Shown: piece by piece, positions 13,449-47,711 of the stretch
How the letters are laid out: every line of letters begins with the position of its first letter
How positions within the stretch are numbered: the first letter of the stretch is position 1
Source: a bacterium
GTDB lineage: Bacteria; SAR324; NAC60-12
Length of the DNA stretch: 64,000 nucleotides
Direction: 5' to 3'
Assembly (NCBI GenBank): GCA_965233585.1
Contig: CBDDTI010000747.1
Location: 96,001-160,000 of the forward strand
Translations under genes and position numbers: made by a program
The notes under the pieces: generated by a model
Databases searched by the model: none
Seen by the model: only the letters and a program-made list of their open reading frames with translations
Told to the model about the DNA's origin: nothing

Positions 13449-13471
13449 AAATTTTAATAAAGGATAAGAAT

Positions 13472-16027: not shown

Positions 16028-16707
16028 TGACCCCTAATCCCACAATCAAATCCCGCAAGCCCAACCGATTAAAAGGTTATGGTTATTCTAAGGAAGGTTA
16101 TTATTTTGTTACGATTTGTGTTCAAAATAGGTTGTGTTTGTTTGGGGATATTATAGGTGGCAAGATGGTTTTGAACAGTGCAGGAGAGATGATTAAAAAA
16201 TGGTGGTTAAAATTGCCTGAGAAATTTGAAAATATTTGTTTTGAAGATGTATTTGTTGTCATGCCAAACCATATTCATGGAATTATCATTATTGAAAATA
16301 ATAAACCCATAAGGACAAATCCATGTGTCAATGTAGGGACAGACCCACGTGTCTGTCCAGAAGATAAAAATATCAATTCAACAGACCCATCCGTCAATGT
16401 AGGGACAGACCCACGTGTCTGTCCAGAAGATAAAAATATCAATTCAGCAGAGGACAAACACGCGGGTTTGTCCCTACAAGGTTTGTCATTATCAGAAATG
16501 ATGCAATGGTTTAAAACCATGACCACAAATGAATATATCAAAGGGGTAAAAAATCAAAATTGGCAGGGTTTTGACAAAAAATTATGGCAAAGATCATTTT
16601 ATGACCATGTCATTAGAGATGAAAAAGCATTATTCAATATCCAAAATTACATTATTGAGAACCCGTTAAAATGGGAAAATGACGATTATAATTTAAATAA
16701 GATATGA
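16027..16707 (+). CDS. REP-associated tyrosine transposase (RAYT, Y1 HUH family)
   Basis: YFVTICVQNR, HUH motif VMPNHIHGII, WQRSFYDHVIR, YIIENP. Confidence 0.92.
   Translation: MTPNPTIKSRKPNRLKGYGYSKEGYYFVTICVQNRLCLFGDIIGGKMVLNSAGEMIKKWWLKLPEKFENICFEDVFVVMPNHIHGIIIIENNKPIRTNPCVNVGTDPRVCPEDKNINSTDPSVNVGTDPRVCPEDKNINSAEDKHAGLSLQGLSLSEMMQWFKTMTTNEYIKGVKNQNWQGFDKKLWQRSFYDHVIRDEKALFNIQNYIIENPLKWENDDYNLNKI
16327..16477. repeat. GTAG REP copies and a 66-bp-period tandem duplication inside RAYT
   Basis: GTAGGGACAGACCCACGTGTCTGTCC at 16333 and 16399, inverted copy at 16452-16477; translated as VNVGTDPRVCPEDKNINS twice. Confidence 0.9.
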
Positions 16708-31335: not shown

Positions 31336-33723
31336 ATGGTCTTTATTATGAAGAAGTTTTTAGCTTGTGCAGTTTTGCCTTTGACTCTTGCTGCTTGTGG
31401 AGAAATAGCTGTGGAAGAAAAACAGACTGAAAAGCCTGAAGAAATAAAGGTCACAGAAGCAACCTATCATGTTTCAGACAATCTTTTAACGTTGGTAGGC
31501 TCAAACCTTGACCAAGCAACAGATAGTCAGATTGAAGACCTCAAACTCAGTTGGCAGTCTTTTCAAAAAGAGTTAACCGATGGTCAGTATTCTGCGACAG
31601 GAAACAATGAAGAAATAGCATCAGCAACAGATGCTGATGATTTGGAACAAGGTCAGTATGCTTATAGAGAGACTCACAAAGATCAACTATGGGTTAAACT
31701 TGCAAACAGCGATGCTTTGGCTTTTGAAGACTTTGCAGCGAATGAAATTTTGGAATTAGCTCAAGGCAATACTTCAGCAGTGAAGCTAGGCGTTGGTTCA
31801 AATGCTTGGGGAGGGTTAAGCACTGACGCTACCATGAAAGTCACTATCAGGTTAGGCAATCCCTCACCCAAAAAGAAGCCCTCCAATCCACCGAAACAAG
31901 AACTTAATCCTGAGATACCTCAAAAGAAACCTTCCAATCCTCCAAAACAACAATCTAGCCCCAAACAGTCTCAACCCAACAAGGCAAAGCCCCAAGCAAA
32001 TGTCAAAGTTTCTGACCAAAAACCACTTCTCTGGTCAAAAATTTTGGATAAAACAGAAACGTGGAGACCCCAACGCAGACATCATGCCAGCGTGTCTTTT
32101 CAAGACAAGATGTGGATTTTCGGAGGAAATTCTGCGAGATCTAGAAATGACATTTGGAGTTCTGCTGATGGCAAGAATTGGAAGCGAGAGAAAGAACATG
32201 CAGAATGGCCTGCCACCAACTTCTTGAAAGTTTTTGAATTTCAAAACAAGCTCTGGCTAATTGGGGGAAGGCGTGAGGGTGATATTTGGGTGTCTTCCGA
32301 TGGTGTCCAATGGACTAAGAAAGCCTCACCAGATTTTCTAAAGAACTTATGGAGATTTGATGTGACGGTGTTTAACAACGCTATTTGGATCACAGGAGGA
32401 TACGACTGGGAGGAAGAGGTGACGAGAGGTGCGACCGATGGAGTTTGGACATCGGCAAACGGAGTAGAATGGACTCAAGTGACGTCTGACAGTGGTTGGG
32501 AACCTAGGCTAGAACATACCACTTTCGTTTTTGACGATAAATTATGGGTGATGGGAGGAAATGCAAGATTTTTTACGAATGATAAGCCTCTCAAAGACCT
32601 TTGGAGTTCCTCTGACGGCAAAAGTTGGACAAAAGAAAAAGATGACTTGAACATTGACTTCCCAGAACAAGTTATTTTTGACAACAAGATTTGGTTGTTA
32701 GATTCCGATGACACAGTTTGGTACTCTACGAATGGTCAAGATTGGCAAGATCAAGCCCAAATTCAAGGATTTGGATTGCACGAGTTTAGCAGTCTGGTGT
32801 TTCAAGACAAAATCTGGGTGATTGATAAAGATGCACGGAGTCTTTTAAGCTCTGCTGATGGAAAGACTTGGAATATAGAATCGCCAAATTATTGGGCGCC
32901 CAACACATCAAGTGTTGTTTTTAAAGATAAAATATGGACACTGGGCGGTTTTTGTGGTCAGGAGTGTTGGAATAACAATGTTTGGAGTTCTGCTGACGGA
33001 GTCAACTGGACAGAAGAACAGGCAGCAGCACCTTGGAAACCACGTTATAATCACACGAGCGTCGTGTTCAAAGATAGAATCTGGGTCATTGGTGGTTATC
33101 AGTCATGGGAGGCTGACATCTGGAGTTCTGCTGATGGAAAAACATGGCAAAAAGAAGTTGACCAAGTGGATTTTTCTGATAGTCAACGTTGGATTATTGC
33201 CAGAATGACAAGTCTTGTCTTTAAAGACAGAATTTGGGTTCTAGGTGCAGGAGATACACACAACGGAAACTACAAGAAAATTTATAGCTCTGACGATGGT
33301 AAGAATTGGAGGGAAGAGGGAACTTTTAACTTTCCTTTTCGTCATGCTAGTCTTGTCTTCCAAAATAAAATGTGGATTTTAGATAGTGAATTTAAGGGGG
33401 CTTGGAGTTCTGCTGATGGCAACACTTGGACGAAAGAAAGCACACTTCCAAGTGATTCATTTAACAATTTTTATGCTGTTGTCCTAGACAAAAGAATTTG
33501 GATTTTTGGAGGCTCTAGTAGCACAGGAAAAAACAGCCCTGTTTATAGTTCTGCTGACGGAAAAACATGGCAAAAAGAAAAGACCCCTGTGCCTTGGGTG
33601 GGAAGTAGCACACTTGCATCCGCCCTAGTCTTTCAAGACAAAATTTATGTCTTAGGTGGGTTTAATGGACAAAAAGTAGAATATGAAAACATCGTTTGGA
33701 AAGCAGAATTAGAAACCGAATAA
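31336..33723 (+). CDS. Surface lipoprotein with Pro/Lys linker and Asp-box/kelch-like (W-S-S-x-D-G-x-x-W) beta-propeller repeats
   Basis: Lipobox LAAC; about ten repeats of VF-x-DKIWVLGG..WSSADGKTW; start may be the ATG at 31348. Confidence 0.82.
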   Translation: MVFIMKKFLACAVLPLTLAACGEIAVEEKQTEKPEEIKVTEATYHVSDNLLTLVGSNLDQATDSQIEDLKLSWQSFQKELTDGQYSATGNNEEIASATDADDLEQGQYAYRETHKDQLWVKLANSDALAFEDFAANEILELAQGNTSAVKLGVGSNAWGGLSTDATMKVTIRLGNPSPKKKPSNPPKQELNPEIPQKKPSNPPKQQSSPKQSQPNKAKPQANVKVSDQKPLLWSKILDKTETWRPQRRHHASVSFQDKMWIFGGNSARSRNDIWSSADGKNWKREKEHAEWPATNFLKVFEFQNKLWLIGGRREGDIWVSSDGVQWTKKASPDFLKNLWRFDVTVFNNAIWITGGYDWEEEVTRGATDGVWTSANGVEWTQVTSDSGWEPRLEHTTFVFDDKLWVMGGNARFFTNDKPLKDLWSSSDGKSWTKEKDDLNIDFPEQVIFDNKIWLLDSDDTVWYSTNGQDWQDQAQIQGFGLHEFSSLVFQDKIWVIDKDARSLLSSADGKTWNIESPNYWAPNTSSVVFKDKIWTLGGFCGQECWNNNVWSSADGVNWTEEQAAAPWKPRYNHTSVVFKDRIWVIGGYQSWEADIWSSADGKTWQKEVDQVDFSDSQRWIIARMTSLVFKDRIWVLGAGDTHNGNYKKIYSSDDGKNWREEGTFNFPFRHASLVFQNKMWILDSEFKGAWSSADGNTWTKESTLPSDSFNNFYAVVLDKRIWIFGGSSSTGKNSPVYSSADGKTWQKEKTPVPWVGSSTLASALVFQDKIYVLGGFNGQKVEYENIVWKAELETE

Positions 33724-33845
33724 TTGCCTTGAGTCTTTTTAAAAAAATCTTGTTTTACAACTTTTTTTATGGCATAGCTTGTCAAAAAAAACAATATAGT
33801 TATACTTTTCATATAAATTTCAAAATCATAACTTGTGAGGACAGC

Positions 33846-35972
33846 ATGAAAAAGTTGCTTATTTGGAGTTGGTTGCTATTTTTTATTGTTGGATGCGGAG
33901 ACCAAGAAGAAGAGAACATCAATACTAAAGTCAGTGAAAAAGTAGAGAAACTACAAGAGGAACAAGAACCTCCAGAATCTTCAAAGGAGGAGGAGGAACA
34001 ATTCCAAGACAAACAAGAACAACATCAGAATTATAAGGAATCTCAAGATATTCCCTTGAAACGTCCTGCTGTTCAAAAGAGTAAACCCAAAAAGGATAAA
34101 ACTCCGAAAAACCCCGTTGTTCAAAAAAGTAAACCTAAAAAAGATAAAACTCAACCCAAGCCAAAGCCCCAAGCAAATGTCAAAGTTTCTGACCAAAAAC
34201 CACTTCTCTGGTCAAAAATTTTGGATAAAACAGAAACTTGGAGACCACGAAGAAGTTCTTCCGCTGCTATTGCTTTTCAGGGAAAACTTTGGATTTTTGG
34301 TGGGAGCAGTGTTGGTAGAAAAAATGACATTTGGAATTCTGTTGATGGCAAGAATTGGACAAGAGTCAAAGAATTTGCCGAATGGTCACCGCGTCTTTTC
34401 CATGCTGTGTTTGAGTTTAAAAACGAGCTTTGGTTGATAGATCGTGATACTAGACCCAAAAACGATATTTGGAAATCTGCTGATGGCATCAATTGGACTT
34501 TGGTCAAAGATGCCTCAAAAGTGATTGAACGTTTTTTTATTCCTTCTGTTACGGTTTTCAAAAACCAAATTTGGATTATGGGAGACGTTAAAACTGACTC
34601 TGATGATTCATCTAGTGAGATATGGGTTTCTTCTAACGGTACAGAATGGACACAGATCGCAGTTGACCAAGATAACATATGGGAAGCCAGAGACTTTCAT
34701 CAATCCTTTGTATTTGATAACAAAATTTGGGTTGCAGGTGGAAGAGAATTTTTAGGTAAAAGGTTTGAAGATATTTGGAGTTCTGTTGATGGAAAAGTTT
34801 GGGTGAAAGAATTTGATGCCTCTCAAGCATCAGAATCTGACAGTCCTGACCATATTTACAATGCTGATTATGTTGTTTTTGATAACCAATTGTGGATGTT
34901 AGATTATACTTGGGATGATGAAACATACGCCTCATCAGGAACGGTTTGGAGTTCTGCCGATGGTCAAACATGGCAAAAAGAAGAGCAAATTCAAACATTC
35001 AATTCGTCAGAGTTCAATAGTCTAGTTTTTAATCATCAACTTTGGGTGATTGATTCAGCTGAACGCGATATTTGGAGTTCTGTTGATGGAAAAACTTGGA
35101 AGATAGAAGTTCCTAATTACTGGGCGCCCCATCATGCTAGCACTGTCTTTAAAGACAGAATTTGGATCATGGGTGGTTTTTGTGGTTCAGATTGCTGGAA
35201 CAACAATGTTTGGAGTTCTGCTGATGGAATCAATTGGCGAGAAGAACTAGATCATGCGGCTTGGAAACCTCGCTACATGCACACGGGCGTTGCCTTCAAA
35301 GATAGACTGTGGGTTATAGGTGGTTATCAATCATGGGAGGCTGACATCTGGAGTTCTGCTGATGGAAAAACATGGCAAAAAGAGTTTGACCAAACGAAAA
35401 GTCCAGAGCGATGGATTGGTCCTAGGATGACGAGTCTAGTTTTCAAAAACAAAATCTGGGTATTAGGAGCAGGAGATTATGATTCTAATACTGATAGGAA
35501 TGGTAAGGAGGTTTGGAGTTCTGCTGATGGCAAAAACTGGCAAAAAGAAGCAGAGTTGAATATGCCTTACAGTTATAGACATAGCAGTTTTGTATTCCAA
35601 AATAAAATCTGGTTCTTTCCTACTACATGGATTCAGACTAAGGATTACTATAGTTCCACAGATGGTCAGAAATGGGAGAAATCAGGAGAATTGCCTCAGC
35701 TGCCAAACTATAGCTATGTTGCTCCTTTGGGCGACAGAATTTGGTTTTTTGGAGGAGAAAAAGGTCAAGATCCTGATACCTCAATTGTTTATAGCACCCG
35801 AGATGGCAAAACATGGTCTAAAGAAAAAAACCCTGTTCCTTGGAATGATCAGGGACATAATTACGGTTCTGTTCTGACATTTAAGGATAAGCTCTATTTA
35901 TTGGGTGGATTCAATGATGAAAAGTCAGAATATGAGAATGTGGTTTGGCAAGCAGAATTAGAAACCGAATAA
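33846..35972 (+). CDS. Paralogous beta-propeller surface lipoprotein
   Basis: ATG at 33846 with GAGG RBS; lipobox IVGC; same repeats and same AELETE C-terminus. Confidence 0.82.
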   Translation: MKKLLIWSWLLFFIVGCGDQEEENINTKVSEKVEKLQEEQEPPESSKEEEEQFQDKQEQHQNYKESQDIPLKRPAVQKSKPKKDKTPKNPVVQKSKPKKDKTQPKPKPQANVKVSDQKPLLWSKILDKTETWRPRRSSSAAIAFQGKLWIFGGSSVGRKNDIWNSVDGKNWTRVKEFAEWSPRLFHAVFEFKNELWLIDRDTRPKNDIWKSADGINWTLVKDASKVIERFFIPSVTVFKNQIWIMGDVKTDSDDSSSEIWVSSNGTEWTQIAVDQDNIWEARDFHQSFVFDNKIWVAGGREFLGKRFEDIWSSVDGKVWVKEFDASQASESDSPDHIYNADYVVFDNQLWMLDYTWDDETYASSGTVWSSADGQTWQKEEQIQTFNSSEFNSLVFNHQLWVIDSAERDIWSSVDGKTWKIEVPNYWAPHHASTVFKDRIWIMGGFCGSDCWNNNVWSSADGINWREELDHAAWKPRYMHTGVAFKDRLWVIGGYQSWEADIWSSADGKTWQKEFDQTKSPERWIGPRMTSLVFKNKIWVLGAGDYDSNTDRNGKEVWSSADGKNWQKEAELNMPYSYRHSSFVFQNKIWFFPTTWIQTKDYYSSTDGQKWEKSGELPQLPNYSYVAPLGDRIWFFGGEKGQDPDTSIVYSTRDGKTWSKEKNPVPWNDQGHNYGSVLTFKDKLYLLGGFNDEKSEYENVVWQAELETE

Positions 35973-36128: not shown

Positions 36129-38309
36129 TTAAATTTTAATTTGACGTAAGCGATTGGAGTTTAGAACGACAGTGAGAGATGAAAGAGCCATCGCAATTCC
36201 TGCGATTGTAGGGTGTAACAACACCCCAAAGAATGGATACAACGCACCTGCCGCAACTGGGATTCCAAGGACATTGTAAATGAATGCGCCAAACAGGTTT
36301 TGTTTGATGTTACGCATCGTCAAACGAGCAACTTGAAGAGTGTGTAAAATGGTGGTTGATGAATGTTTAAGCAAGATGATGTCAGAAACCTGCAAGGCTG
36401 TGTCAGAACCTGAACCGACAGCACAACCTACATTGGCTTGAGCCAGTGCTGGGGCATCGTTAATTCCATCTCCTACCATACAAACAATCGCTCCTTTGGT
36501 CTGAAGGTTTTTAATGAACTCTTGTTTGTCTTGGGGGAGCAATAAGCCATGATGTTCTTGCACCTGAAGTTTTATAGCCACGTGTTCTACCACTTCCTGA
36601 CGATCCCCTGACAAAATCACTGTGCGAACTCCAAGTTTGTTCAGTTTTTGTACTGTCTCAAGAGCGTCTGCTTTGACAGCATCAGTCAAGAAGATTGCAC
36701 CAATCATCTGCCCATCAACTGCTACAAAAATAGGAGCAACGCCTGCTTTGGCAGGTTCTAACTGTAATAACTTGACTTGTCGTTCTTCAAAGAAACGACT
36801 TCCCCCAACCAAAACTTGTTTGCCTTCCAGCATTGCTTGTACCCCAAAACCTGAAAAACTTTCAAAATCACTGACAGCTTGCAACTCTAAATTTGTTGCA
36901 TGTTTGACAATGGCTTTGGCTAAAGGGTGTTCTGAGTGGGTTTCAACAGATGCCGCAATCCTCAACAATTCATCTTCTGACATGGTAGGTGAGATAATTT
37001 GTTCAACAATAGGTTTTCCCTCTGTCAACGTCCCAGTTTTGTCAAAAATCACATGTGTCAACTTCGCCATGTTCTGCAAGGCATTGCCATCTTGAATCAA
37101 TGCCCCCACTTCGGCAGCTTTGCCGATCCCTGCAATCACTGATGTTGGCGTTGCCAAACCCAAAGCACAAGGACACGCAATGACAAGCGTTGCAAGACCT
37201 ATGACCAGCATATAATTTGGAGCAAAGAAGAACCAAATGCTCATAGCTAACAATGCAATGCAGATGACAGTCGGTGCAAAATAATGACAAATCGTGTCAG
37301 CCAATTTGGCAAGTTCAGGCTTGGTATTTTGTGCATTTTTAACAGCACGAATGATGGCAGATAAGACGGTTGACTCACCTACATTTTCTGCACGAATGAT
37401 GAATGACCCCGAATGATTAGTGCTTCCTCCAATCACTTGAGACCCCGTTTCTTTATTCACAGGCTCCCATTCTCCAGTCAGCATAGATTCATCAACAGTG
37501 GAACGACCTTCTATCACTACTCCATCAACAGGAATTTGGTCGCCCGGACGAATTTTCAAGCAACCTCCAACCTGAATGGCTGACCATTCAATGATACGTT
37601 CTTGACCCTCTTCAATTAAAGTTGCAGTCTTTGGTCTTAAATTGAGCAGGGATTCTACCACAGAAGAAGTTTTAGTCCGCGATCGGATTTCTAGGGCTTT
37701 ACCAAATGAGACGAAACCTAGAATAAAAAGTGCAGTTTCAAAATAAAGATATTGAGAGTCTTTTGGAATTTGTTCAGTGAAAAGAATGACGACCATAGAA
37801 TAAACCCACGCCATACTTGTCCCCAAAGTGATGAGTGAATCCATGTTGGCAGAGCGATTTTTGAAAGCCTTCCATGCTCCAGCATAACGTTTGTGTCCTG
37901 AAAAGTACATCGCCACTGATGAAATGATGGCAATGAACCACACGGCAATTCTGTCTGTTGTCAAATCAATTTGGTAGGGAGACATAGACCATGCCATGAT
38001 TCCAGAACCCACCGCCAAGCTGATGATTGCCGCACGGATTGACTCTTTCCATTCCTGATTTTGGTTGGCTTTAGACTGTTGCAGTGTGGCAACATCACTT
38101 TCCACCAATGTTGCCTCATAACCTGCCTTTTTCAACAAAGACACCACTTGCTTGGGCTTGAAAGAAGACAACAAAGTCAACTCTTTTTCTGCAAAATTGA
38201 CTGATGCTGAATCTACCTCTTGTTGATTGGTCAAAAGACTTTCAATCGTTTTAACACAACCGCCACAAGAAATTCCTGCTAATGCAAATCGCATTTGATG
38301 TGTAGCCAT
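36129..38309 (-). CDS. copA: Copper-translocating P1B-type ATPase
   Basis: CGGC metal-binding domain, CPCALGLA, DKTGT, SEHPL, GDGINDAP, YN and MALSS Cu(I) signatures. Confidence 0.94.
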   Translation of the reverse strand: MATHQMRFALAGISCGGCVKTIESLLTNQQEVDSASVNFAEKELTLLSSFKPKQVVSLLKKAGYEATLVESDVATLQQSKANQNQEWKESIRAAIISLAVGSGIMAWSMSPYQIDLTTDRIAVWFIAIISSVAMYFSGHKRYAGAWKAFKNRSANMDSLITLGTSMAWVYSMVVILFTEQIPKDSQYLYFETALFILGFVSFGKALEIRSRTKTSSVVESLLNLRPKTATLIEEGQERIIEWSAIQVGGCLKIRPGDQIPVDGVVIEGRSTVDESMLTGEWEPVNKETGSQVIGGSTNHSGSFIIRAENVGESTVLSAIIRAVKNAQNTKPELAKLADTICHYFAPTVICIALLAMSIWFFFAPNYMLVIGLATLVIACPCALGLATPTSVIAGIGKAAEVGALIQDGNALQNMAKLTHVIFDKTGTLTEGKPIVEQIISPTMSEDELLRIAASVETHSEHPLAKAIVKHATNLELQAVSDFESFSGFGVQAMLEGKQVLVGGSRFFEERQVKLLQLEPAKAGVAPIFVAVDGQMIGAIFLTDAVKADALETVQKLNKLGVRTVILSGDRQEVVEHVAIKLQVQEHHGLLLPQDKQEFIKNLQTKGAIVCMVGDGINDAPALAQANVGCAVGSGSDTALQVSDIILLKHSSTTILHTLQVARLTMRNIKQNLFGAFIYNVLGIPVAAGALYPFFGVLLHPTIAGIAMALSSLTVVLNSNRLRQIKI

Positions 38310-38343
38310 ATAATCGCCCTTAAAAAATTAAAATTTGATTTTC

Positions 38344-38850
38344 CTAAAACTGACTTTGCCTAATACGATAGATTTCAGGCCACAATGATTTAACATGTTT
38401 TAAAACTGCACGGATTTGGTCATCGTTCAATCTTCCTTTAAACCCGACCATTCTTGAGTTTGGATCCCCAGAACCATTTTTGATGATGCTGAATAACACT
38501 TCGTCAGAATGATGCCATGTATGACCTGTCCCGTTCAAGGCAGGCGCAATCAAAAGACCCGCAGCACTCATGCCCCCGCGAGGTTGATTAGAATTTTCTC
38601 CAATTCCATCTTTTCCATGGCAGGAAGCACAATTTTCTGCAAACAACTGTTTGCCATCGTAGCTCACACCAGATTGTAAATTTTGGTTAAGATTAAACTC
38701 ACTTTGTTTCGTCTGCTCATAAAAATACCATACCATGCCAATCGTCAAAATGGCTCCTAAGACGATGGCAAGTTGCCTTTGGTTTGCTTTTTGTCTCTTA
38801 GTTGATTTGTTTTTTCTTGACATAGTTGAAAAATAAGGTAGGGGTTTCAA
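38344..38850 (-). CDS. Membrane-anchored monoheme cytochrome c
   Basis: CASCH heme motif, APALNGTGHTWHH, distal Met; N-terminal TM helix. Confidence 0.88.
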   Translation of the reverse strand: MKPLPYFSTMSRKNKSTKRQKANQRQLAIVLGAILTIGMVWYFYEQTKQSEFNLNQNLQSGVSYDGKQLFAENCASCHGKDGIGENSNQPRGGMSAAGLLIAPALNGTGHTWHHSDEVLFSIIKNGSGDPNSRMVGFKGRLNDDQIRAVLKHVKSLWPEIYRIRQSQF

Positions 38851-39116
38851 GAAATAGAATAAAGTTTAACAAGCTCTTGAATCATTGCCTGTTTTTTTTC
38901 AGGGGTTGACTCTAGCGTTGCAGCATAGACACAAGATTCCAGATGTTTACCAATGATTTTTCGCTCTGCTGAACAAATTGCAGAACGTGCCGCCTTGAGT
39001 TGCATCAAAATATCTGGGCAATATCTTTGATTTTCAATCATACGTTTCACACCTTCAAGTTGTCCAATAATCCGATTGATCCGAACCAGCTCGTTTTCAT
39101 GGCAGGGTGGCTTCAT
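38847..39116 (-). CDS. csoR: CsoR/RcnR-family metal-sensing repressor
   Basis: RINRIIGQLEGV..RYCPDIL..HLESCV. Confidence 0.9.
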   Translation of the reverse strand: MKPPCHENELVRINRIIGQLEGVKRMIENQRYCPDILMQLKAARSAICSAERKIIGKHLESCVYAATLESTPEKKQAMIQELVKLYSIS

Positions 39117-39370: not shown

Positions 39371-40804
39371 TTAGCCTCTTCTCCAACGATGGAACTTTTC
39401 AGAAAAGTTGATCGCCCATTCGGGAATATGTTTTTTCCTCCAAACTCCAGCAACATATTTGTTTGCTTCTGCATAAGAAGGATACAAATGAGTTGTTGCT
39501 AAAATATGGTTTAGTCCTAGTTTATGTTTCATTGCTAGAACAAACTCTGATAAAAGCTCAGCTGCATGTTCACCTACAATGGTCACACCCAAAATTTTGT
39601 CTTTGTTAACTGGTGTCAAGACTTTGATAAATCCATGGTTGACTTGGTCAACGATGGCTCTATCCAAATGGTCTAAATCAAACTCGGTTACTTCATAGTC
39701 AATGCCCTGAGATTTGGCAGTGCTTTCATGCAGCCCAACATGAGCAACTTGAGGGTGAGTAAAGATACAATAAGGCATGATGGAATGGTCACAACGAAAC
39801 CTTTTGAAGGGAGAAAAAAGAGCATTCATACTGGCGTACCAACCCTCATGTGCAGCTGCATGAGTGAATTGAGGAGGACCTGCGACATCTCCGCAAACAT
39901 AAATGGAAGGTACTTTTGTCTGTAAAAAAGCATCTGACACAACCCCTTGCCTGTTGACTTCTACCCCTAGCTTTTCCAGCCCCAAACCCTCAACATCTAT
40001 TTTTCTTCCCACTGCAAACAACACTTGATCAAATGGAATTTCAATTTCTTGTGCTTGATGTTCCGCAATCAGAACATTCTCTCCATTTTTCTTTTCAAAT
40101 TTGATTGTTTTGGATTTGCCGTAAAGTGTAATGCCTTCTTCTTGAAAACGTTTTTCCATGAAAAGAGAAGTGTCAATATCTTCCCTCGCCATTAAATGCT
40201 CTTCAAGAAACAACATGCTCACTTTTGAACCTAAGCGACTGAAGGCTTGTGCCATTTCGCAGCCAATAGCTCCTGCTCCTAAAACCAAAAGTCTTTTGGG
40301 CAGAGTGTCTATCTGCCACAAGGAATCACTGGTCAAGTAATCTATGTCTTCTAAACCTTCTATTGGTAACACATGAGGCGTGGAACCTGTTGCAATGACA
40401 ATGGCTCTAGTGGTTAAAGTGCGACCGTCCACCTCTACGGAGTGAGGGCTTGTGATAGTAGCATGCCCCTGAAGACATTCTACTCCAAGCTGCGTATATC
40501 GCTCAACGGAGTCATTTGGCTCAATTTTTTTGATTGACTCGTGTACTTTTGCCATCACATTTTTGAAGTCAAAATCAACATCTATGCTTTTTAAGCCAAA
40601 ATCTTGTGGAATTTTGGCAAGGTGTACCAGAGAGGCAACATTAATCAAGGCTTTACTTGGAACACAACCCGTATTCAAGCAATCTCCCCCCATTTTATGT
40701 TTTTCTATCAAAGCAACTTTCGCTTTTGAAGCACTGGCAATGTAAGAGCTAACCAATCCACCTGCACCTGCACCGATCACAATCAAGTTATAGTCGTATT
40801 TCAT
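39371..40804 (-). CDS. FAD-dependent pyridine nucleotide-disulfide oxidoreductase (MerA/LpdA-like, not true MerA)
   Basis: GAGAGG, GGDCLNTGCVPSK, GAGAIGCE; no C-terminal Cys-Cys pair or HMA domain. Confidence 0.88.
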   Translation of the reverse strand: MKYDYNLIVIGAGAGGLVSSYIASASKAKVALIEKHKMGGDCLNTGCVPSKALINVASLVHLAKIPQDFGLKSIDVDFDFKNVMAKVHESIKKIEPNDSVERYTQLGVECLQGHATITSPHSVEVDGRTLTTRAIVIATGSTPHVLPIEGLEDIDYLTSDSLWQIDTLPKRLLVLGAGAIGCEMAQAFSRLGSKVSMLFLEEHLMAREDIDTSLFMEKRFQEEGITLYGKSKTIKFEKKNGENVLIAEHQAQEIEIPFDQVLFAVGRKIDVEGLGLEKLGVEVNRQGVVSDAFLQTKVPSIYVCGDVAGPPQFTHAAAHEGWYASMNALFSPFKRFRCDHSIMPYCIFTHPQVAHVGLHESTAKSQGIDYEVTEFDLDHLDRAIVDQVNHGFIKVLTPVNKDKILGVTIVGEHAAELLSEFVLAMKHKLGLNHILATTHLYPSYAEANKYVAGVWRKKHIPEWAINFSEKFHRWRRG

Positions 40805-40809
40805 CGTTT

Positions 40810-41502
40810 TTATTTAGTTTTAGGTTTAAGCATTGCAAGCAATTTCTTGGAAGCAATGGGAAGTAATCCAACGAGGCTAAAGGCAATCGCTAACTCCAAA
40901 GATAAAATATCTGAAACCTGTTGAATTTGTGAAAGAGTTGTGCCAGCGTAAACATAAACAGCTGTCCCCAAAAGCATGCCGATTTGAGACACCCAATAAA
41001 AATGAACAGCCTTCACTGGTAAAAGAGCCATGAGCATATTGACTAAAAAGAACGGAAACAATGGCACAAGCCTTAACGCAAACAAATACCACAGTCCTTC
41101 CTTTTCAAAGGCTTCATTACATTTTGTAAGTGCATTGCTATATCGCTTTTGCACAGCCTCTTTGAAAAGATAACGTGTAATCAAAAAAGCAATAAAAGCC
41201 CCGAGTGAGCTGGCAAATGAGGCAATGGGAAGTCCTAACCCAAATCCAAAAATAGCTCCTGATAACAAGGTCAGCAAAGCCGCAATAGGCAGAGACAAGG
41301 CACTAGAAGCCGTGTAGATTGCAAAAAACACAATCACCACCGTCCATTGATTTTCAGCATAAAGATTTTGCCATTCTTGATAACGTTCTTTGATGTATTC
41401 TAGGCTCAAAACCTCTCCTAAACCTGAGAGAAAAAAGCCTACGATTGCCAAAATGATCGCAAGCACTAACAGTGGCTTCAAAAATTTTTGATATGGTTTC
41501 AT
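40810..41502 (-). CDS. TVP38/TMEM64 (DedA/VTT) membrane protein
   Basis: LLSGAIFG, LRLVPLFPFFLVN; start at 41502 couples (ATGA) to the upstream stop. Confidence 0.88.
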   Translation of the reverse strand: MKPYQKFLKPLLVLAIILAIVGFFLSGLGEVLSLEYIKERYQEWQNLYAENQWTVVIVFFAIYTASSALSLPIAALLTLLSGAIFGFGLGLPIASFASSLGAFIAFLITRYLFKEAVQKRYSNALTKCNEAFEKEGLWYLFALRLVPLFPFFLVNMLMALLPVKAVHFYWVSQIGMLLGTAVYVYAGTTLSQIQQVSDILSLELAIAFSLVGLLPIASKKLLAMLKPKTK

Positions 41503-42350
41503 GGTAAAAATTGTTTTAACCAAGACAGTCTTTTGCACGATGAAAATTTTTGATGTAAGGTAACCAAATCATCTAAAGTCTCCATGTCAAGTTTGTTGTC
41601 TAGGTAGTGAAGAGTTGTAGAAAGTTGATGTATAAACTGCTTAAAGGTGTCATGTTGTGAGTAAGCAACATTCTTAAAGACAAAGCACGGCAAAAATTGT
41701 TTTAACCAAGATAGCCTCTTGCATGATGAAAACTCTTGATGCAGGGCAATCAAATCATCTAAGGTATCCACATCAAGTTTGGTATCTAGGTAGTGAATGG
41801 GAGTTGTAGAGAGTTGATGCACAAGTTGCTTGAGAGTGTCATGTCGTGAATAGGTAACATTTTTAAAGACAAAGTCAGGTAAGTCTATCGCCCCCCCAAA
41901 CAAATAAAAACCACCATCTACACTTGCACCAATAACAATTTGCTTCGGATTTTGCTCAAGATGACGAGATGCCTCAAGCAATAAATCAGATTCTAATTGG
42001 GGACTGTCTGTCCCGATGATGATGACTGAATCGTAATTTTGTTTGAGATGAGAGTAAATACTGTGCAGTCTATCGCCCAGAGTCCCTTGACCTGTCCAAA
42101 TGACTTGAAAATCTTGTTCCCGGTGATTTTGCCAATATTTATGAGTGACGCCTTCTTCTTCTGCAACTGCAATGTATAAATCAATTTGTTCACTCTTTAT
42201 AGTTCCAACAGTCTGGCAGACCTGTCTTTGAGATTGATGATAGAAACACTCTGCCTGATCCTGACCAATACTTTGTGCAAGCCTCGTTTTGACTGGGGAA
42301 AGTCCAACTGTCTTAGCAAAAATGGCTATAGCACACTGAGTTCGAGACAT
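41499..42350 (-). CDS. DUF2064/TIGR04282-type transferase (arsenosugar-cluster associated) with duplicated C-terminus
   Basis: AIFAK..VKTRLA, GTLGDRL, IIGTDSPQL, IGASVDGGFYL, DVDTLDDL. Confidence 0.85.
   Translation of the reverse strand: MSRTQCAIAIFAKTVGLSPVKTRLAQSIGQDQAECFYHQSQRQVCQTVGTIKSEQIDLYIAVAEEEGVTHKYWQNHREQDFQVIWTGQGTLGDRLHSIYSHLKQNYDSVIIIGTDSPQLESDLLLEASRHLEQNPKQIVIGASVDGGFYLFGGAIDLPDFVFKNVTYSRHDTLKQLVHQLSTTPIHYLDTKLDVDTLDDLIALHQEFSSCKRLSWLKQFLPCFVFKNVAYSQHDTFKQFIHQLSTTLHYLDNKLDMETLDDLVTLHQKFSSCKRLSWLKQFLP
41503..41874 (-). repeat. Diverged tandem duplication of about 186 bp
   Basis: FVFKNV..CKRLSWLKQFLP occurs twice at the protein end. Confidence 0.9.
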
Positions 42351-42530
42351 AGATTTGGGAAATCAGTTTGAAAAATAAGCTAACATAGACATCAGAGTCT
42401 CATCACACTACGAAAAGACAAAGTCTTAAAAACAGTCTTCAATTATATTGACCACCAGACTAAAAGTCAATCTAAAAATAACATTTAATTACATTTGCTG
42501 TCAAACCGAAAGCCGGTGTGAATGAAAAAA

Positions 42531-43274
42531 TCATCTCTTTTTTTGAAAAAGATAACGTTGCTTCCACCACAAGTACTGATGTTGTAAGGTGATTTTAAGC
42601 CAACCATAAGCCATATATTTTCTGGCACTGGTCAGTAGTGGAATAGGTATCTTATTAAAAGGAATTTTCAAAAATTTTGCTTGTAAGGTCAGTAGATGAT
42701 CTTCACCATAGAGGCAGTTGACTGGGTAACCTTGTAATCTTTCAAAAAGCTCACGATGCAAACAAAAACCTTGATCACCAAAAGGGGCATGAAAGAGTTT
42801 GGAGCGAACATTTGCTCCTAACGCGTTGAGTCTCATCAATTCTTGAACAAAACGTTCTTTCAAGCCAACCGACTGAAAAGGCATAAAGGCTAACTGAAAA
42901 TAATGAAAGTGTTTTGGATTCTTTTTTAGGGATTGAATCAGTTGAGACAACACATTCTCTGGCAAAAAGCTGTCAGCATGTAAGAACCACAAAAACGGAT
43001 ATTGAGCCAATTTTGCACCTGCATTTAAAGCTAATGCTCTTGGATTCAAGCCTGCCTGTGCTTCTGAACACTCAACATGAACCCATTTAACGCGATCGGA
43101 AGGCACTGAGCTTTGTTGTTTAATGAGGTTTTGGGGGCTGCACAAAAGGATTTCATAGAGGCAGTCGCTGCTGGAAAAATCAGACGTCAGGCTTTCGTAA
43201 TGTTGCTCAACTTGGTGAACCAACCTTTGCCAGTTTGGCTCATTGGGTGCCAGAGGAATGATGATGCTAATCAT
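42531..43274 (-). CDS. GT2 glycosyltransferase (TIGR04283-like)
   Basis: ISIIIP, RALALNAGA, LWFLHADS, FGDQG, GED, TSARKY. Confidence 0.85.
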   Translation of the reverse strand: MISIIIPLAPNEPNWQRLVHQVEQHYESLTSDFSSSDCLYEILLCSPQNLIKQQSSVPSDRVKWVHVECSEAQAGLNPRALALNAGAKLAQYPFLWFLHADSFLPENVLSQLIQSLKKNPKHFHYFQLAFMPFQSVGLKERFVQELMRLNALGANVRSKLFHAPFGDQGFCLHRELFERLQGYPVNCLYGEDHLLTLQAKFLKIPFNKIPIPLLTSARKYMAYGWLKITLQHQYLWWKQRYLFQKKR

Positions 43275-44110
43275 TTCATCAAAACTTCAAGCATTGCCTG
43301 TTTTTGTGGTGGAATGGCATTTTGAGGGGTGAGCAGTGCATTGCATAAAGACATTCTTTGGGTGTCGTCAATGGGGGGCAAATCCTGCTGGAGCAACTGG
43401 CATAACAAAGATTTGGCTTTTTCTACACTTTGCCCATATCGCTGAATCACATCGGAGACATTGACGTGTTGGTCGGGGTTGTCCTTCCAACAATCATAAT
43501 CAGTCACAATCGCAATCGTGGCATAATTGATCTGCGCTTCTTTGGCTAAAAAGACTTCAGGGACATTCGTCATACCTACCAAATCACAGCCTGCAGTTCT
43601 TAAAAAATGGCTTTCTGCTTGAGTCCCTAATCTTGGTCCGTCAACGCAAGCGTAAGTTTTGTTAGTGTGCATGGTGAGCTTCATCGCTTGTGCTTGGGTT
43701 GCAATCCACTCGGTCAAAAGTTCGCAAGTAGGTTTTGCAGTAGAAACGTGAGCGGCAAGTCCTTCGCCAAAAAAAGTCTTTTCACGATGTCCTTTCACGA
43801 AGTCAAAATATTGACTGGGAATCACAAAATCGCCGGGGTGGATGTCCTCTCGCAAAGAACCCACTGCTGAAAGACCAATGATTTGCTTCACTCCCAATGA
43901 CTTTAGGGCATAAATGTTTGCCCTGTAATTGATTTCATGTGGTAAAAACTGATGATTTTGCCCGTGCCTTGCCAAAAAAAATAAAGACTTCTCTTGATAA
44001 GTTGCTTGAATCACTTCAGCTTGACCAAAAGGAGTCTGAATTTGTTTGACTTGGTCAATATGTAAATTTTCCAGCTGATAAATTCCTGTTCCACCAATAA
44101 TTGCTAGCAT
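43271..44110 (-). CDS. mtnP: 5'-methylthioadenosine phosphorylase-like nucleoside phosphorylase
   Basis: AIIGGTG, LARHG..PHEINYRANI, SAVGSL, GPRLGTQAES, VGMT..PE, VTDYDCW; start set to the ATG at 44110. Confidence 0.9.
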   Translation of the reverse strand: MLAIIGGTGIYQLENLHIDQVKQIQTPFGQAEVIQATYQEKSLFFLARHGQNHQFLPHEINYRANIYALKSLGVKQIIGLSAVGSLREDIHPGDFVIPSQYFDFVKGHREKTFFGEGLAAHVSTAKPTCELLTEWIATQAQAMKLTMHTNKTYACVDGPRLGTQAESHFLRTAGCDLVGMTNVPEVFLAKEAQINYATIAIVTDYDCWKDNPDQHVNVSDVIQRYGQSVEKAKSLLCQLLQQDLPPIDDTQRMSLCNALLTPQNAIPPQKQAMLEVLMK

Positions 44111-44117
44111 CGTTTGT

Positions 44118-44927
44118 TTATTTTTGAGGATTAGTCCAAGGTATCCATAGTAAATTCCACAGATTCGTTTTGTCAAAGTTTTTGTATTCGTTTAAACCCA
44201 GAACCATTTTTTCCTGCTCATATTTAGGATGGGCAGTGTAAGTCCCGAACAACTTATCCCAACATGCCAAATGAAACCCAAAGTTGCTATGATGTTCTTT
44301 GGCAATCACAGAATGATGAATGCGGTGCATGTCTGGAGTGACGAATAGGTAATGCAAAACTTGGTTAAGTTTTGGAGACAATTTGATATTGGAGTGGGTG
44401 AACATTGCCATTACATTCAATACAATCTCAAAAAGAAGCACGGCTTCAAAAGGGATTCCAAAGACAATCACAATCAATGCTTTCAAAAGTACAGACAACA
44501 GAATTTCCAGAGGGTGAAACCTGATCCCTGATGAGACATCTAAATCGTGGTCAATGTGATGTACTTTATGAAGACGCCAAAGTGCAGGGACCCAATGAAA
44601 GACGACATGTTGTAGATAAATGAAAAAATCTAGCAGAATGATGCTCACGGCAACAGTAGTCCAGTAAAGCCATGGCGTGTTAATTTCAAGAAGGTTGAAA
44701 AGCCCCCAGCTTTTTTGTTGAGCTAAAATGGCAACTCCTCCAACACTAAATGGTAGCAGATACTTTACAAGCAGTTGGCTAATAAAAAGCAGACCAAAAT
44801 TTCTAACATACCTAAAATTTTGCGGATAATTCCATTTTCTTTTGGGAACCCACCTTTCCAAAAAAAATAAAATCCCCAATGTACCTAAAAAGATAGCAAT
44901 ACGCCATAAGCTACTGTCGTTCATCAT
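44118..44927 (-). CDS. Sterol desaturase / fatty acid hydroxylase family protein
   Basis: His boxes HVVFH, HKVHH, RFHPLE, HRIHH; WDKLFGTY. Confidence 0.9.
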   Translation of the reverse strand: MMNDSSLWRIAIFLGTLGILFFLERWVPKRKWNYPQNFRYVRNFGLLFISQLLVKYLLPFSVGGVAILAQQKSWGLFNLLEINTPWLYWTTVAVSIILLDFFIYLQHVVFHWVPALWRLHKVHHIDHDLDVSSGIRFHPLEILLSVLLKALIVIVFGIPFEAVLLFEIVLNVMAMFTHSNIKLSPKLNQVLHYLFVTPDMHRIHHSVIAKEHHSNFGFHLACWDKLFGTYTAHPKYEQEKMVLGLNEYKNFDKTNLWNLLWIPWTNPQK

Positions 44928-45002
44928 TTCTTAATTATATTGGATTGTTAAATGATTAGGTGATAGTTGATGGTTTCTTTTTTAAGAAATAGATACAATT
45001 TT

Positions 45003-45956
45003 TTAGTCTAAACTACCACTGCAAGAACTTCCAGCTCCTGCAGTGCAACCATAGCAGTGACTTCCCAACGCGATCCCTTGACTTAAATCTGAAAAATCAT
45101 TGATGCCCCAAATGGTTGTTGGTTTAGAGTCAATTGGTATTTCTAACATTTGATTGAAATCACAATCATAAATCTGTCCATCCCAACTGATAGACACTAA
45201 ATTAGTACACATGACATTGTGAGCAACATCTGGGTTAAAGTTGTTGGTGAGTAACTCCATATACTCTTGAAACTTTCCTTTCCTTTGAAGCCACCACAAG
45301 TACCTTTTAATCGGCATATTGGTTATGGTAAATAACTGATTGAACACGATGCCAAAATGTTTTTGTAAATGCTCTTTATATGCTTCTTCCAACGCTTTTT
45401 GGTCACCGGGCAAGACATTGCTGGTTGGATTGTAAACCAAATTTAAATTTAGACCTTTTTGACGTCCGTATCCTAGTTGATTGAGTTGTTGCAAAGACAA
45501 AATGCTTTTATTAAAAACGCCTCTGCCTCGTTGTGAGTCCACATTATCTTCCAAATAACAAGGGAGAGATGCCACAATTTGCACCTGATGGTCTCTCAAG
45601 AAAACGGCTGTGTCTTCATACCCTTTCTCCTGCAAAATCGTCAAATTACAGCGATCTATCACCTCTTTCTTCATCTGCCTTAGCTCCTTGACAAAATAGA
45701 CAAAATGAGGGTTCATCTCAGGAGCGCCACCAGTGATGTCAATCGTCTTGACAGATGGTGCATGTTCCAGCAATTCTAACAAGCGATTGACCGTTGTCAA
45801 AGTCATGTTTTCTGTTCGTATCGGGCTAGATTCCACATGACAATGCGAACATGCCTGATTGCAACGTTTACCAATATTAACTTGCAATGTTGTGATTATT
45901 TTTCTCTGCAACGTAATACGATGTTCTTGTAATTTTTTAGCGAATGGTGTGAACAT
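45003..45956 (-). CDS. arsS: ArsS-type radical SAM / Cys-rich protein (arsenosugar biosynthesis)
   Basis: CNQACSHCHV, ITGGAPEMNP, ASLPCY, YDCDFNQML, C-terminal HCYGCTAGAGSSC. Confidence 0.88.
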   Translation of the reverse strand: MFTPFAKKLQEHRITLQRKIITTLQVNIGKRCNQACSHCHVESSPIRTENMTLTTVNRLLELLEHAPSVKTIDITGGAPEMNPHFVYFVKELRQMKKEVIDRCNLTILQEKGYEDTAVFLRDHQVQIVASLPCYLEDNVDSQRGRGVFNKSILSLQQLNQLGYGRQKGLNLNLVYNPTSNVLPGDQKALEEAYKEHLQKHFGIVFNQLFTITNMPIKRYLWWLQRKGKFQEYMELLTNNFNPDVAHNVMCTNLVSISWDGQIYDCDFNQMLEIPIDSKPTTIWGINDFSDLSQGIALGSHCYGCTAGAGSSCSGSLD

Positions 45957-46056
45957 AGGAGACCTAAATCATAATATTTACTTAAATTCCCCACATTGTA
46001 ACATATAAGATAAAATTTTGACTAAAAAATCCTATCTTATAAAAAAATTGGCATTG

Positions 46057-46739
46057 TTAAGTAATAAGTGATAGCTGATTATTCCGTTTTGCCATGAACA
46101 AAAGAACAGAATATTGTAATGCTTTAAGAGACTTGCTGTAACATTTGGTTTTCCTTCTCATTCTTGCCAAGAAATGTCTCAAGAGAGAATTATACCCTTC
46201 TATCGTGTATGTTTCTGCCTTGGAACATGTATGAATTTCTTTGGGAATGACTTGTTTGTAAGCCTTGCAGTGATCAGTCATCACCTGAAGAGGTTTTGTT
46301 TCCTTGACCTTGTCCCATAAATGCCTACAGGCTTTTGAGTCTCTGTTTCCAAGCACATAATTGATAAATTGCTTCCCACGTCTATCAACAGCAATCCAGA
46401 GCCAGCAGTAGTTTTTTTTGACTGGATGTAGGTGTGCATTTCATCAATTTCCATAATTTCAATGTCTGTGTCCTTTCTTAATGCCTTGAGCTGTTCGCCA
46501 AAACTACAGACCCAATTATAAACTGAAACATGAGAACAATTCAGCAAACGACCGATTGACCTGAAACCAAGACCCTCCAAATACAACTCTAATGCTCTTC
46601 TTTTGATCTGTGGTGAGATTTGACCACGATAGGACTTGGTATATTGATAGTTGCAGGCATTGCAACGCCTCCTCGGTTTACCATATAAGAAACCATTCTT
46701 AACCGTCTTCTCACTTTCACATCTAGGACACGACTTCAT
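46057..46739 (-). CDS. insAB: IS1 transposase InsAB' (programmed -1 frameshift), copy 1
   Basis: Zn finger CPRC..CNAC, HTH, EIDEMH; A8C slip site (T8 at 46412-46419) leads into the KNYCWLWIAVD..TDH..IEGYN frame. Confidence 0.9.
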
Positions 46740-46775
46740 TGCTACACCATGACTATCAATTCAATTAAATGAACT

Positions 46776-47535
46776 GGCATTGTTAAGTAATAAGTGATAG
46801 CTGATTATTCCGTTTTGCCATGAACAAAAGAACAGAATATTGTAATGCTTTAAGAGACTTGCTGTAACATTTGGTTTTCCTTCTCATTCTTGCCAAGAAA
46901 TGTCTCAAGAGAGAATTATACCCTTCTATCGTGTATGTTTCTGCCTTGGAACATGTATGAATTTCTTTGGGAATGACTTGTTTGTAAGCCTTGCAGTGAT
47001 CAGTCATCACCTGAAGAGGTTTTGTTTCCTTGACCTTGTCCCATAAATGCCTACAGGCTTTTGAGTCTCTGTTTCCAAGCACACAATTGATAAATTGCTT
47101 CCCACATCTATCAACAGCAATCCAGAGCCAGCAGTAGTTTTTTTTGACTGGATGTAGGTGTGCATTTCATCAATTTCCATAATTTCAATGTCTGTGTCCT
47201 TTCTTAATGCCTTGAGCTGTTCGCCAAAACTACAGACCCAATTATAAACTGAAACATGAGAACAATTCAGCAAACGACCGATTGACCTGAAACCAAGACC
47301 CTCCAAATACAACTCTAATGCTCTTCTTTTGATCTGTGGTGAGATTTGACCACGATAGGACTTGGTATATTGATAGTTGCAGGCATTGCAACGCCTCCTC
47401 GGTTTACCATATAAGAAACCATTCTTAACCGTCTTCTCACTTTCACATCTAGGACACAACTTCATTGCTACACCATGACTATCAATTCAATTAAATGAAC
47501 TTAATATCGCATATCACTTATAGTTTAACAATACC
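46776..47535 (-). mobile_element. Inner intact IS1-family element (760 bp)
   Basis: Both IRs present; 8-bp TSD AATGAACT at 46768-46775 and 47536-47543. Confidence 0.94.
46783..47465 (-). CDS. insAB: IS1 transposase InsAB' (programmed -1 frameshift), copy 2
   Basis: Near-identical to copy 1; slip site T8 at 47138-47145. Confidence 0.9.
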
Positions 47536-47711
47536 AATGAACTTAATATCGCATATCACTTATAGTTTAACAATACCAAAAAATTTAATTTGAGGATACT
47601 TAACTCAAAGTTATACTAAGATAAAAAATGGTTTGCAATAGCTGAATTTGTAAAGATTTTTTCAATTTCATTTGAAAACTATGCTAGCTGAAAATTGCAT
47701 TTTAAACTAAT

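Follow-up and report, generated by a model that had tools for sequence, protein, structure and literature searches.

In a 64,000-nucleotide stretch of the genome of a bacterium of the SAR324 lineage (GenBank assembly GCA_965233585.1, contig CBDDTI010000747.1, positions 96,001 to 160,000; this whole stretch is referred to as the window), seven open reading frames (ORFs) at 39371-45956 on the minus strand are arranged head-to-tail in one direction. They encode the radical S-adenosylmethionine (SAM) enzyme ArsS, a membrane protein of the hydroxylase/desaturase type, a phosphorylase of the 5'-methylthioadenosine (MTA) phosphorylase (MTAP) family, a family 2 glycosyltransferase (GT2), a DUF2064 protein, a VTT/DedA-type membrane protein and a disulfide oxidoreductase. 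Judged from the sequences and their relatives, the cluster represents the catalogued arsenosugar-type gene set and was very probably acquired laterally, and its MTAP belongs to a narrow subfamily that is restricted to such clusters. We suggest, with a confidence slightly above even, that this MTAP is a dedicated arsenic-nucleoside phosphorylase that feeds a nucleotidyltransferase (DUF2064) and GT2. The MTAP is a concrete candidate for the step after ArsS because it is an altered form of the phosphorylase that is encoded within the cluster itself.

Arsenosugars are among the main organic forms of arsenic in marine food webs, and the ArsM-ArsS arsenosugar pathway of Synechocystis sp. PCC 6803 was reportedly described by Xue et al. 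in 2019 and by Cheng et al. in 2021. According to the available parts of three reports (PMC13598754, PMC12159101, bioRxiv 10.1101/2022.09.23.509062), ArsM supplies methylated arsenite, ArsS adenosylates dimethylarsenite to give 5'-deoxy-5'-dimethylarsinoyl-adenosine (DDMAA), and the Synechocystis locus is an arsM-arsS pair to which later steps are not assigned. The window ArsS is of the same family, TIGR04167, with DDMAA as its expected first product; the window differs in that its genome lacks arsM and in that five further conserved genes, including the putative dedicated phosphorylase, are present. One genome paper (PMC13077682) goes no further than listing genes annotated as 'arsenosugar biosynthesis glycosyltransferase'. 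In the literature searched, only the first two enzymes, ArsM and ArsS, are assigned, and the late steps gain a candidate here. Together, a cluster-confined phosphorylase subfamily, a fixed active-site change and a coupled nucleotidyltransferase and glycosyltransferase amount to a three-enzyme hypothesis, open to testing on purified proteins and in cultured carriers, Neptuniibacter among them.

The MTAP of the cluster and its relatives

The MTAP gene (43271-44110, minus strand; longest ORF to 44176) passes the MTAP model TIGR01694 narrowly (284.7 bits, cut-off 274.85), several members of the clade described below score just under this cut-off, and it matches PF01048 with 131.6 bits. Searching one genome of each prokaryote species with the window MTAP as query yielded 71 loci. 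In 67 of these the protein is 49-67% identical to the query, while the remaining four are archaeal or candidate phyla radiation outgroups at 36-39% identity. The 67 loci come from marine Alphaproteobacteria (Parvibaculaceae, Rhodobiaceae, Emcibacter), Gammaproteobacteria (including Neptuniibacter, Motiliproteus, Endozoicomonas and Parashewanella), Desulfobacterales, one Chlamydiales metagenome-assembled genome (MAG) and one Neomarinimicrobiota MAG.

The window's own phylum is represented by 88 species genomes in the collection, and an MTAP-family match (E <= 1e-20) is present in 72/88 of them and in 33/35 good-quality genomes. The window MTAP, the sole MTAP-family gene of its genome, is 36-45% identical to 43 MTAP-family genes from this phylum. 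These include 20 genes that we call type A (~300-335 bits on TIGR01694) and 20 that we call type B (~240-285 bits). Type B proteins have Phe-Glu at the signature pair discussed below and lack the Asp-Tyr-Asp adenine motif, and their base specificity therefore probably differs. None of the 20 type-B loci has arsenic-type neighbours, and type B was rejected as kin of the window MTAP on account of the missing motif and the missing neighbours.

In a tree of 111 rows (IQ-TREE in 'quick' mode; the window, 66 of the 67 loci after a 115-residue fragment had been dropped, the four outgroups, 20 type A and 20 type B), the window MTAP and the 66 loci form one clade with an SH-aLRT support of 100 and a stem of 1.17 changes per column. 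By contrast, the type-A genes form their own clade, which tracks the families of the phylum. Within the first clade, the window is nested (support 95) in a group of 12 rows that comprises alphaproteobacterial MAGs and the Chlamydiales MAG; a locus of this group, L033, has all seven genes, with a small change in their order. Because of this nesting and the shared gene set, the cluster was very probably acquired laterally as a unit. ArsS, single-copy in the genome, is 56-62% identical to the ArsS proteins of five related loci (61% and 62% in the alphaproteobacterial L033 and L043) and only 46-56% identical to those of its own phylum.

The clade has an active-site signature, which we identified from a MAFFT alignment and from printed alignments to solved MTAPs. 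The window MTAP has Leu183-Gly184 where other MTAPs have Phe-Ser (F177-S178 in the human enzyme). Leu-Gly is found in 66/66 full-length clade members, the 67th being a fragment that ends short of the site. Phe-Ser is found in 20/20 type-A MTAPs, in 4/4 outgroups and in every solved MTAP with a printed alignment (RsfP 4glf, 1v4n, 2a8y, 1wta/9vs8); the window MTAP matches solved MTAPs with 177-217 bits. An exhaustive HMMER search against 1.84 billion representative proteins yielded 7374 matches, 602 of them at E <= 1e-30, and among the best 150 of the 7374 the pair is Leu-Gly in 11 (each with 48-67% identity to the window MTAP), Phe-Ser in 110, another pair in 28 and a gap in one. In the available part of PMC5738077, F177 and S178 are among 15 listed active-site residues of human MTAP, and F177 is described as conserved even in human purine nucleoside phosphorylase (PNP) and as contacting the purine.

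Outside this pair, the contacts of MTAPs to phosphate, ribose and adenine are kept (T30, R70, H71, H75, S103/A104, H143, M202, T203, D226 and D228), as are the hydrophobic V240, V243 and I244. The human residues T18, R60, H61, T93/A94, M196, T197, D220 and D222, taken from the list in PMC5738077, align with window T30, R70, H71, S103/A104, M202, T203, D226 and D228, respectively. Further positions that are fixed in the clade only include Y123, F124, V127, an inserted G129, T146, D179, P234, H237 and R246. The window enzyme shares with canonical MtnP/MTAP (4glf, 1v4n, 2a8y, 1wta and human 1cb0) the NP-I fold family, the phosphate-binding residues and the adenine-specific Asp residues, and differs from them in forming a separate clade, in having Leu-Gly for Phe-Ser, in the one-residue Gly insertion and in the further fixed differences. 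It also differs in that the clade occurs almost only inside arsenic-type operons and not with methionine-salvage genes. NCBIfam gave only generic MTAP names for five representatives from the protein library. Automatic annotation labels the clade genes as ordinary MTAP, thereby masking a possible specialised function.

Partner genes were counted within 6 kb of the MTAP gene in the 67 loci by tblastn with the window proteins and extra queries from related loci. A radical SAM gene is present in 63/67 loci, DUF2064 in 62/67 and GT2 in 57/67, each time immediately downstream of the MTAP gene on the same strand. The disulfide reductase follows with 32/67, an ArsM-like methyltransferase with 22/67, VTT with 20/67, ArsC with 18/67 and the hydroxylase with 2/67. 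Only two of the 67 loci have no partner, L077, with just 200 nt upstream of the gene, and L094; none of these partners is present in the four outgroup loci (36-39% identity). NCBIfam applied to 89 ORFs confirmed the identities in 11/11 representative loci. An anticorrelation between ArsM and the reductase, sought by eye in the 67 loci, was not seen, and several loci carry both. Two fusions occur: in Neptuniibacter (L050:11540-13678) VTT is fused to the disulfide reductase in a protein of 712 aa, and in Parashewanella (L063:6393-8228) DUF2064 is fused to the ArsM-like methyltransferase in a protein of 611 aa. These fusions support functional links among the parts of the cluster.

The sequence-only reading of the window proposed co-occurrence of the MTAP clade with arsS as a check. 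The association with a radical SAM gene held, while canonical ArsS (56-62% identical) accounts for only five of the 63 cases and a second, ArsS-like family for the other 58. Members of this second family (~305 residues, e.g. L050:9083-9994) replace ArsS beside the MTAP gene in 58 loci (range L033-L103). They score 88-121 bits on an Rv1681-type model (cut-off 380) and just 46-70 bits on the ArsS model; Pfam gives the Radical_SAM domain alone, and identity to ArsS is 23% over the first 160 residues. Their C-terminal Cys motif, RCYSCFAYGASCSEG, is ArsS-like when compared with the Cys-rich C-terminus of the window ArsS, HCYGCTAGAGSSCSG.

Housekeeping removal of MTA can be provided by a second enzyme, to judge from profile scores. 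An MtnN-type nucleosidase for MTA and S-adenosylhomocysteine (SAH) is encoded on the same contig as the window (TIGR01704 127.9 bits, cut-off 73.8). MtnN scores above the cut-off in 29/88 genomes of the phylum, and it is concentrated in three genera of the family of the window genome (16/18, 8/9 and 3/3 genomes, E <= 1e-15). The genus g10 of this family has MtnN and no true MTAP, while ArsS-bearing relatives in the phylum have a type-A MTAP and no MtnN. Each of five complete genomes with a clade MTAP has one MTAP-family match, the cluster gene. Two of these, from Neptuniibacter, encode a strong MtnN (331 and 325 bits) besides the cluster MTAP, one from Endozoicomonas has only a weak MtnN match (56 bits), and in two complete Parvibaculaceae genomes no MtnN match reached significance, one of the two holding only an 18.9-bit fragment with a stop codon. 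The clade MTAP is thus an extra enzyme in some hosts and may double as the MTA enzyme in others.

Proposed route and alternative explanations

Based on these data, we suggest the following route. ArsS would join the 5'-deoxyadenosyl part of SAM to methylated arsenic, giving DDMAA, a reaction shown for its family in the literature. Most likely, the MTAP-family enzyme would then use phosphate to cleave this arsenic nucleoside to adenine and an arsenic-bearing alpha-ribose-1-phosphate, DUF2064 would turn the latter into a nucleoside diphosphate (NDP)-sugar, and GT2 would move the sugar to an acceptor, an inverting transfer giving the natural beta-riboside linkage. The order of phosphorolysis, activation and transfer is coherent because the sugar-1-phosphate on which a nucleotidyltransferase and an NDP-sugar transferase depend would be supplied by the phosphorylase. 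Since transfer by GT2 enzymes inverts the anomeric centre and arsenosugars occur naturally as beta-ribofuranosides, an alpha-configured product of the phosphorylase would make the stereochemistry consistent. Alpha-ribose-1-phosphate is the product of NP-I phosphorylases according to the available part of PMC7226091.

In an extended version, which we put forward tentatively and hold for somewhat less probable than the dedicated phosphorylase itself, the Leu-Gly subfamily would open a Leloir-type route from arsenic-ribose-1-phosphate through NDP-arsenoribose (DUF2064) to a beta-arsenoriboside (GT2). The head group of a membrane lipid may itself be the site at which the riboside is built, and this lipid would then be acted on by the DedA-type protein, the reductase and the hydroxylase. 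If true, this route would supply enzymes for the late steps of arsenosugar and arsenosugar-lipid synthesis.

The families of the cluster fit a catalogued gene set. All three families of the NCBIfam 'arsenosugar biosynthesis' set (TIGR04167, TIGR04282 and TIGR04283) are present in the window and in related loci; this set was formerly named rSAM/selenodomain-associated transferases. The set holds no phosphorylase model, and the window MTAP matches generic MTAP models only. NCBIfam calls TIGR04282 a glycosyltransferase, whereas the predicted structure of the window TIGR04282 protein resembles nucleotidyltransferases.

The source of methylated arsenic is a separate matter. The earlier observation that the window holds no arsM was borne out and can be extended to the whole genome (12 Mb, 92.5% complete). 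The highest genome scores are 24.5 bits on the arsenosugar-type ArsM model NF038099 (cut-off 400) and 40.9 bits on the general model NF008823 (cut-off 263), and tblastn of the genome with the ArsM-like protein of a related locus gave no match at 1e-5. The same holds for tblastn with the related-locus ArsC and the second radical SAM family, both without a match at 1e-5. Neither the locus nor the genome thus yielded a methyltransferase that would make up a complete ArsM+ArsS system. The absence of arsM is likely, yet uncertain because the genome is 92.5% complete. In a genome without arsM, the methylated arsenic would have to come from outside the cell.

ArsS-centred loci indicate that a phosphorylase in the cluster is optional. 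ArsS is present in 28/88 genomes of the phylum, and neighbourhoods were taken from 20 of these 28, some on contigs of only 3.5-6 kb. No MTAP is adjacent to ArsS in any of the 20 loci, and no DUF2064, hydroxylase or reductase lies beside it; VTT follows ArsS in five and a weak GT2 match is present in two. Where ArsS and a type-A MTAP share a contig, they are 12.5-14.9 kb (G040, G041, G043) or 47.8 kb (G039) apart, and in the others they are on separate contigs; a loose linkage was considered for these four distant genes, which were not counted as cluster members. When metagenomes were scanned with the window ArsS as query, at least 595 relatives came up, and the best 80 (47-60% identical) were kept; 31 of these have at least 3 kb on each side. 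Among the 31 loci, partners are ArsM-like in 14, GT2 in 10, the reductase in nine, DUF2064 in seven, the hydroxylase in five and VTT in three, and these numbers are probably undercounts for divergent GT2, DUF2064 and PNP-type enzymes because tblastn was run with window queries. The hydroxylase is accordingly a recurrent minority member of such clusters and not a chance neighbour.

Several observations weigh against a dedicated arsenic-nucleoside phosphorylase. An MTAP-family match is present in just two of the 31 metagenome ArsS loci, one with Phe-Ser and one with an odd motif, neither with Leu-Gly; because only 0/20 phylum and 2/31 metagenome loci carry one, a cluster-encoded phosphorylase is optional for ArsS systems and not generally required. 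By profiles and tblastn, the genome lacks ArsM and lacks an ArsC of the family seen in related loci. GT2 scores below the TIGR04283 cut-off (123 vs 182 bits) and has an insertion of ~30 residues, although TIGR04283 is its only family match. To go by the MtnN pattern, the cluster MTAP of Parvibaculaceae may also perform ordinary MTA salvage. The residues that we take to line the 5'-methylthio pocket (equivalents of V233, V236 and L237) are conserved in the window MTAP. The mapping to human numbers is partly our assumption and agrees with the end points of the alignment (query 23-264, chain 11-257), and the proposal that Leu-Gly alters the substrate fit is drawn from sequence comparison rather than from a structure. 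Finally, the open literature, with subscription papers including the primary ArsS papers outside the search, assigns no phosphorylase, nucleotidyltransferase or glycosyltransferase to arsenosugar synthesis.

The main rival explanation, which we consider unlikely, is that the MTAP is a clean-up enzyme. It would remove MTA and the 5'-deoxyadenosine released by abortive SAM cleavage, sparing the radical SAM enzyme product inhibition, while GT2 and DUF2064 would use another sugar. MTAPs commonly accept 5'-deoxyadenosine, and the retained phosphate, ribose and adenine contacts, together with the passed TIGR01694 cut-off, are as expected for such a role. The enzyme probably does handle MTA in the two complete Parvibaculaceae genomes, in which it is the sole MTAP and MtnN gave no significant match, and most ArsS loci manage without a cluster phosphorylase. 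However, the MTAP gene has a tighter tie to GT2 than to the radical SAM gene, since it lies immediately upstream of GT2 in 57/67 loci and overlaps it by ATGA in the window, and a fixed change of two otherwise conserved active-site residues (66/66) is not expected with unchanged substrates. Moreover, MtnN already covers the same job in the window genome and in Neptuniibacter, and the nucleotidyltransferase and NDP-sugar transferase need a sugar-1-phosphate donor for which the cluster encodes no other source.

Less probable still is that the cluster does not act on arsenic at all, with the ArsS-type enzyme adenosylating another acceptor and the downstream enzymes building a different 5-substituted ribose conjugate. 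The failure to detect an ArsM-like gene or a query-type ArsC in the genome would fit this explanation, as would the position of the cluster beside copper genes (CsoR, cytochrome c, CopA) instead of an ars operon. On the other hand, ArsS lies far above its equivalog cut-off (444 vs 300), loci of the same clade carry ArsM-like genes (22/67) and ArsC (18/67), and both marine and fresh waters offer methylated arsenic.

That the gene is an ordinary housekeeping MTAP beside arsS by chance is very improbable: although it is the sole MTAP-family gene of its genome and such genes are near-universal in the phylum (72/88; 33/35 good-quality genomes), this explanation was rejected by the 36-45% identity to the 43 phylum genes and by the placement in a different clade with support of 100, and 65/67 clade members have arsenic-cluster partners while MtnN is present as in g10, which lacks a true MTAP. 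The sequence-only reading had named, as a result that would refute a dedicated function, a gene that is the only MTAP of the genome and clusters with housekeeping enzymes; the first part turned out to be true and the second did not, since the protein does not group with the housekeeping MTAPs of the phylum. The search for a separate housekeeping gene and arsM that it recommended revealed neither a second MTAP nor an arsM, and found MtnN on the same contig.

Cluster layout and partner proteins

Gene families were assigned by Pfam and NCBIfam profile scores and junctions were read from the nucleotide sequence. The co-directional run of seven genes described earlier is present in full on the minus strand with its gene calls correct, and the overlap of the MTAP stop with the GT2 start is an ATGA at 43271-43274. 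The likely MTAP start is ATG 44110, 7 nt past the hydroxylase stop, and the longest ORF opens at TTG 44176. DUF2064 and VTT likewise overlap by ATGA, provided that VTT begins at ATG 41502, its likely start, and VTT and the reductase are spaced by 5 nt. GT2 and DUF2064 are separated by a gap of 180 nt, which contains an 11/12 promoter-like match that we do not rely on; a promoter and terminator scan gave no usable signal, with 22 promoter-like sites against 23.9 expected and eight terminator-like sites against 7.5. The G+C content of the cluster is 0.397, compared with 0.398 for the genome, which is in 747 contigs, the window lying on one of 1.07 Mb.

ArsS (45003-45956, minus strand) scores 444.1 bits on TIGR04167 (cut-off 300), with Radical_SAM and DUF3641 (187.6 bits) domains. 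It has the cluster motif CNQACSHC of the CX3CX2C type in addition to the Cys-rich C-terminus given above.

The DUF2064/TIGR04282 protein (41499-42350, minus strand; TIGR04282 145.5 bits, cut-off 134; PF09837 76.8 bits) is a predicted nucleotidyltransferase and scores 28.5 bits on the CofC model TIGR03552. An AlphaFold2 (AF2) model of residues 1-215, built from a nine-sequence alignment, has a predicted local distance difference test (pLDDT) score of 89.1 and predicts a nucleotidyltransferase fold. The model is nearest to its own family member 3cgx, followed by the CofC/FbiD guanylyltransferases 7p97 (3-phosphoglycerate guanylyltransferase), FbiD 6bwg and CofC 2i5e; further matches are KdsB, GlmU, IspD, TarI and MobA, these named enzymes being nucleotidyltransferases, and among the matches listed no Leloir glycosyltransferase was seen. 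CofC/FbiD enzymes join a phosphate-bearing substrate to GMP, which is the chemistry required for activation of a sugar-1-phosphate. Sequence identity to them is just 14-18%, and a ribose-1-phosphate derivative would be the presumed substrate in the window. The protein has an in-frame tandem duplication of its last ~62 residues (41500-41685 and 41686-41874, 82-84% identity), which accounts for its unusual length of 283 aa; Tandem Repeats Finder did not report this duplication, which was found by a repeat search.

GT2 (42531-43274, minus strand; TIGR04283 123 bits, PF00535) had no match in a sequence search of the Protein Data Bank (PDB). Its AF2 model (pLDDT 87.0) is GT-A-like, with template modelling (TM) scores of 0.5-0.6 to the NDP-sugar transferases WrtF, GtrB, SpsA, TarP and chondroitin polymerase. 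The two models thus lend support to the folds assigned before, a CofC-like nucleotidyltransferase for DUF2064 and a GT2.

The membrane protein of the di-iron hydroxylase/desaturase type (44118-44927, minus strand; PF04116, FA_hydroxylase, 96.1 bits) has the His boxes HVVFH, HKVHH and HRIHH and can be placed at the superfamily level only. It scores 87.7 bits on the OlsE model NF052566 (cut-off 475), well short of an ornithine lipid hydroxylase. The VTT/DedA-type membrane protein (40810-41538, minus strand) matches PF09335 with 79.8 bits. The reductase (39371-40804, minus strand), a class-I flavoprotein pyridine-nucleotide disulfide oxidoreductase (Pyr_redox_2 205.4 bits, Pyr_redox_dim 98 bits), has the redox-active motif CLNTGC and scores 465.5 bits on NF004991 (cut-off 620). 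Its assignment as MerA was rejected (TIGR02053 370 bits vs 454.45, NF010311 261 vs 600) in favour of a generic class-I disulfide reductase.

These three proteins are recurrent accessories that point tentatively to a membrane or lipid setting and to a need for thiol redox chemistry; an arsenolipid product, suggested by gene content, is speculative. The proposal that the oxidoreductase reduces As(V) found no support. According to the available part of PMC13598754, the arsenic of DDMAA already has the As(V) oxo form that arsenosugars contain, and the reduction is therefore not needed for known arsenosugars. Possibly, the reductase supplies the trivalent substrate from external dimethylarsenate.

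Flanking regions and the rest of the window

Directly upstream of arsS, outside the proposed pathway, are two tandem copies of the insertion sequence IS1 (46040-47490, minus strand), which form a 726-nt direct repeat of 99% identity with terminal inverted repeats. Each transposase is split into two ORFs, the halves matching NF033558 and PF03400, and a 42-nt unit is repeated ~2.2 times at 47494-47589. Directly downstream of the cluster and on the same strand, 36129-39116 encodes a CsoR-type metal repressor, a c-type cytochrome and a CopA copper ATPase.

Further away, two large Kelch-repeat proteins of 795 and 758 aa, unusual in bacteria, are encoded side by side at 31336-35972. Three paralogues with C-terminal SnoaL-like domains lie amid transporter genes at 6279-7430, 21335-22345 and 22386-23468. 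The stretch at 11301-19478, with a low G+C content (0.24-0.33), looks like a defence island: the two genes of a type III restriction-modification pair (Mod 11301-13448, Res 16704-19478) enclose an 851-aa protein with TIR and STAND-NTPase parts (13472-16027) and an unassigned ORF of 226 aa.

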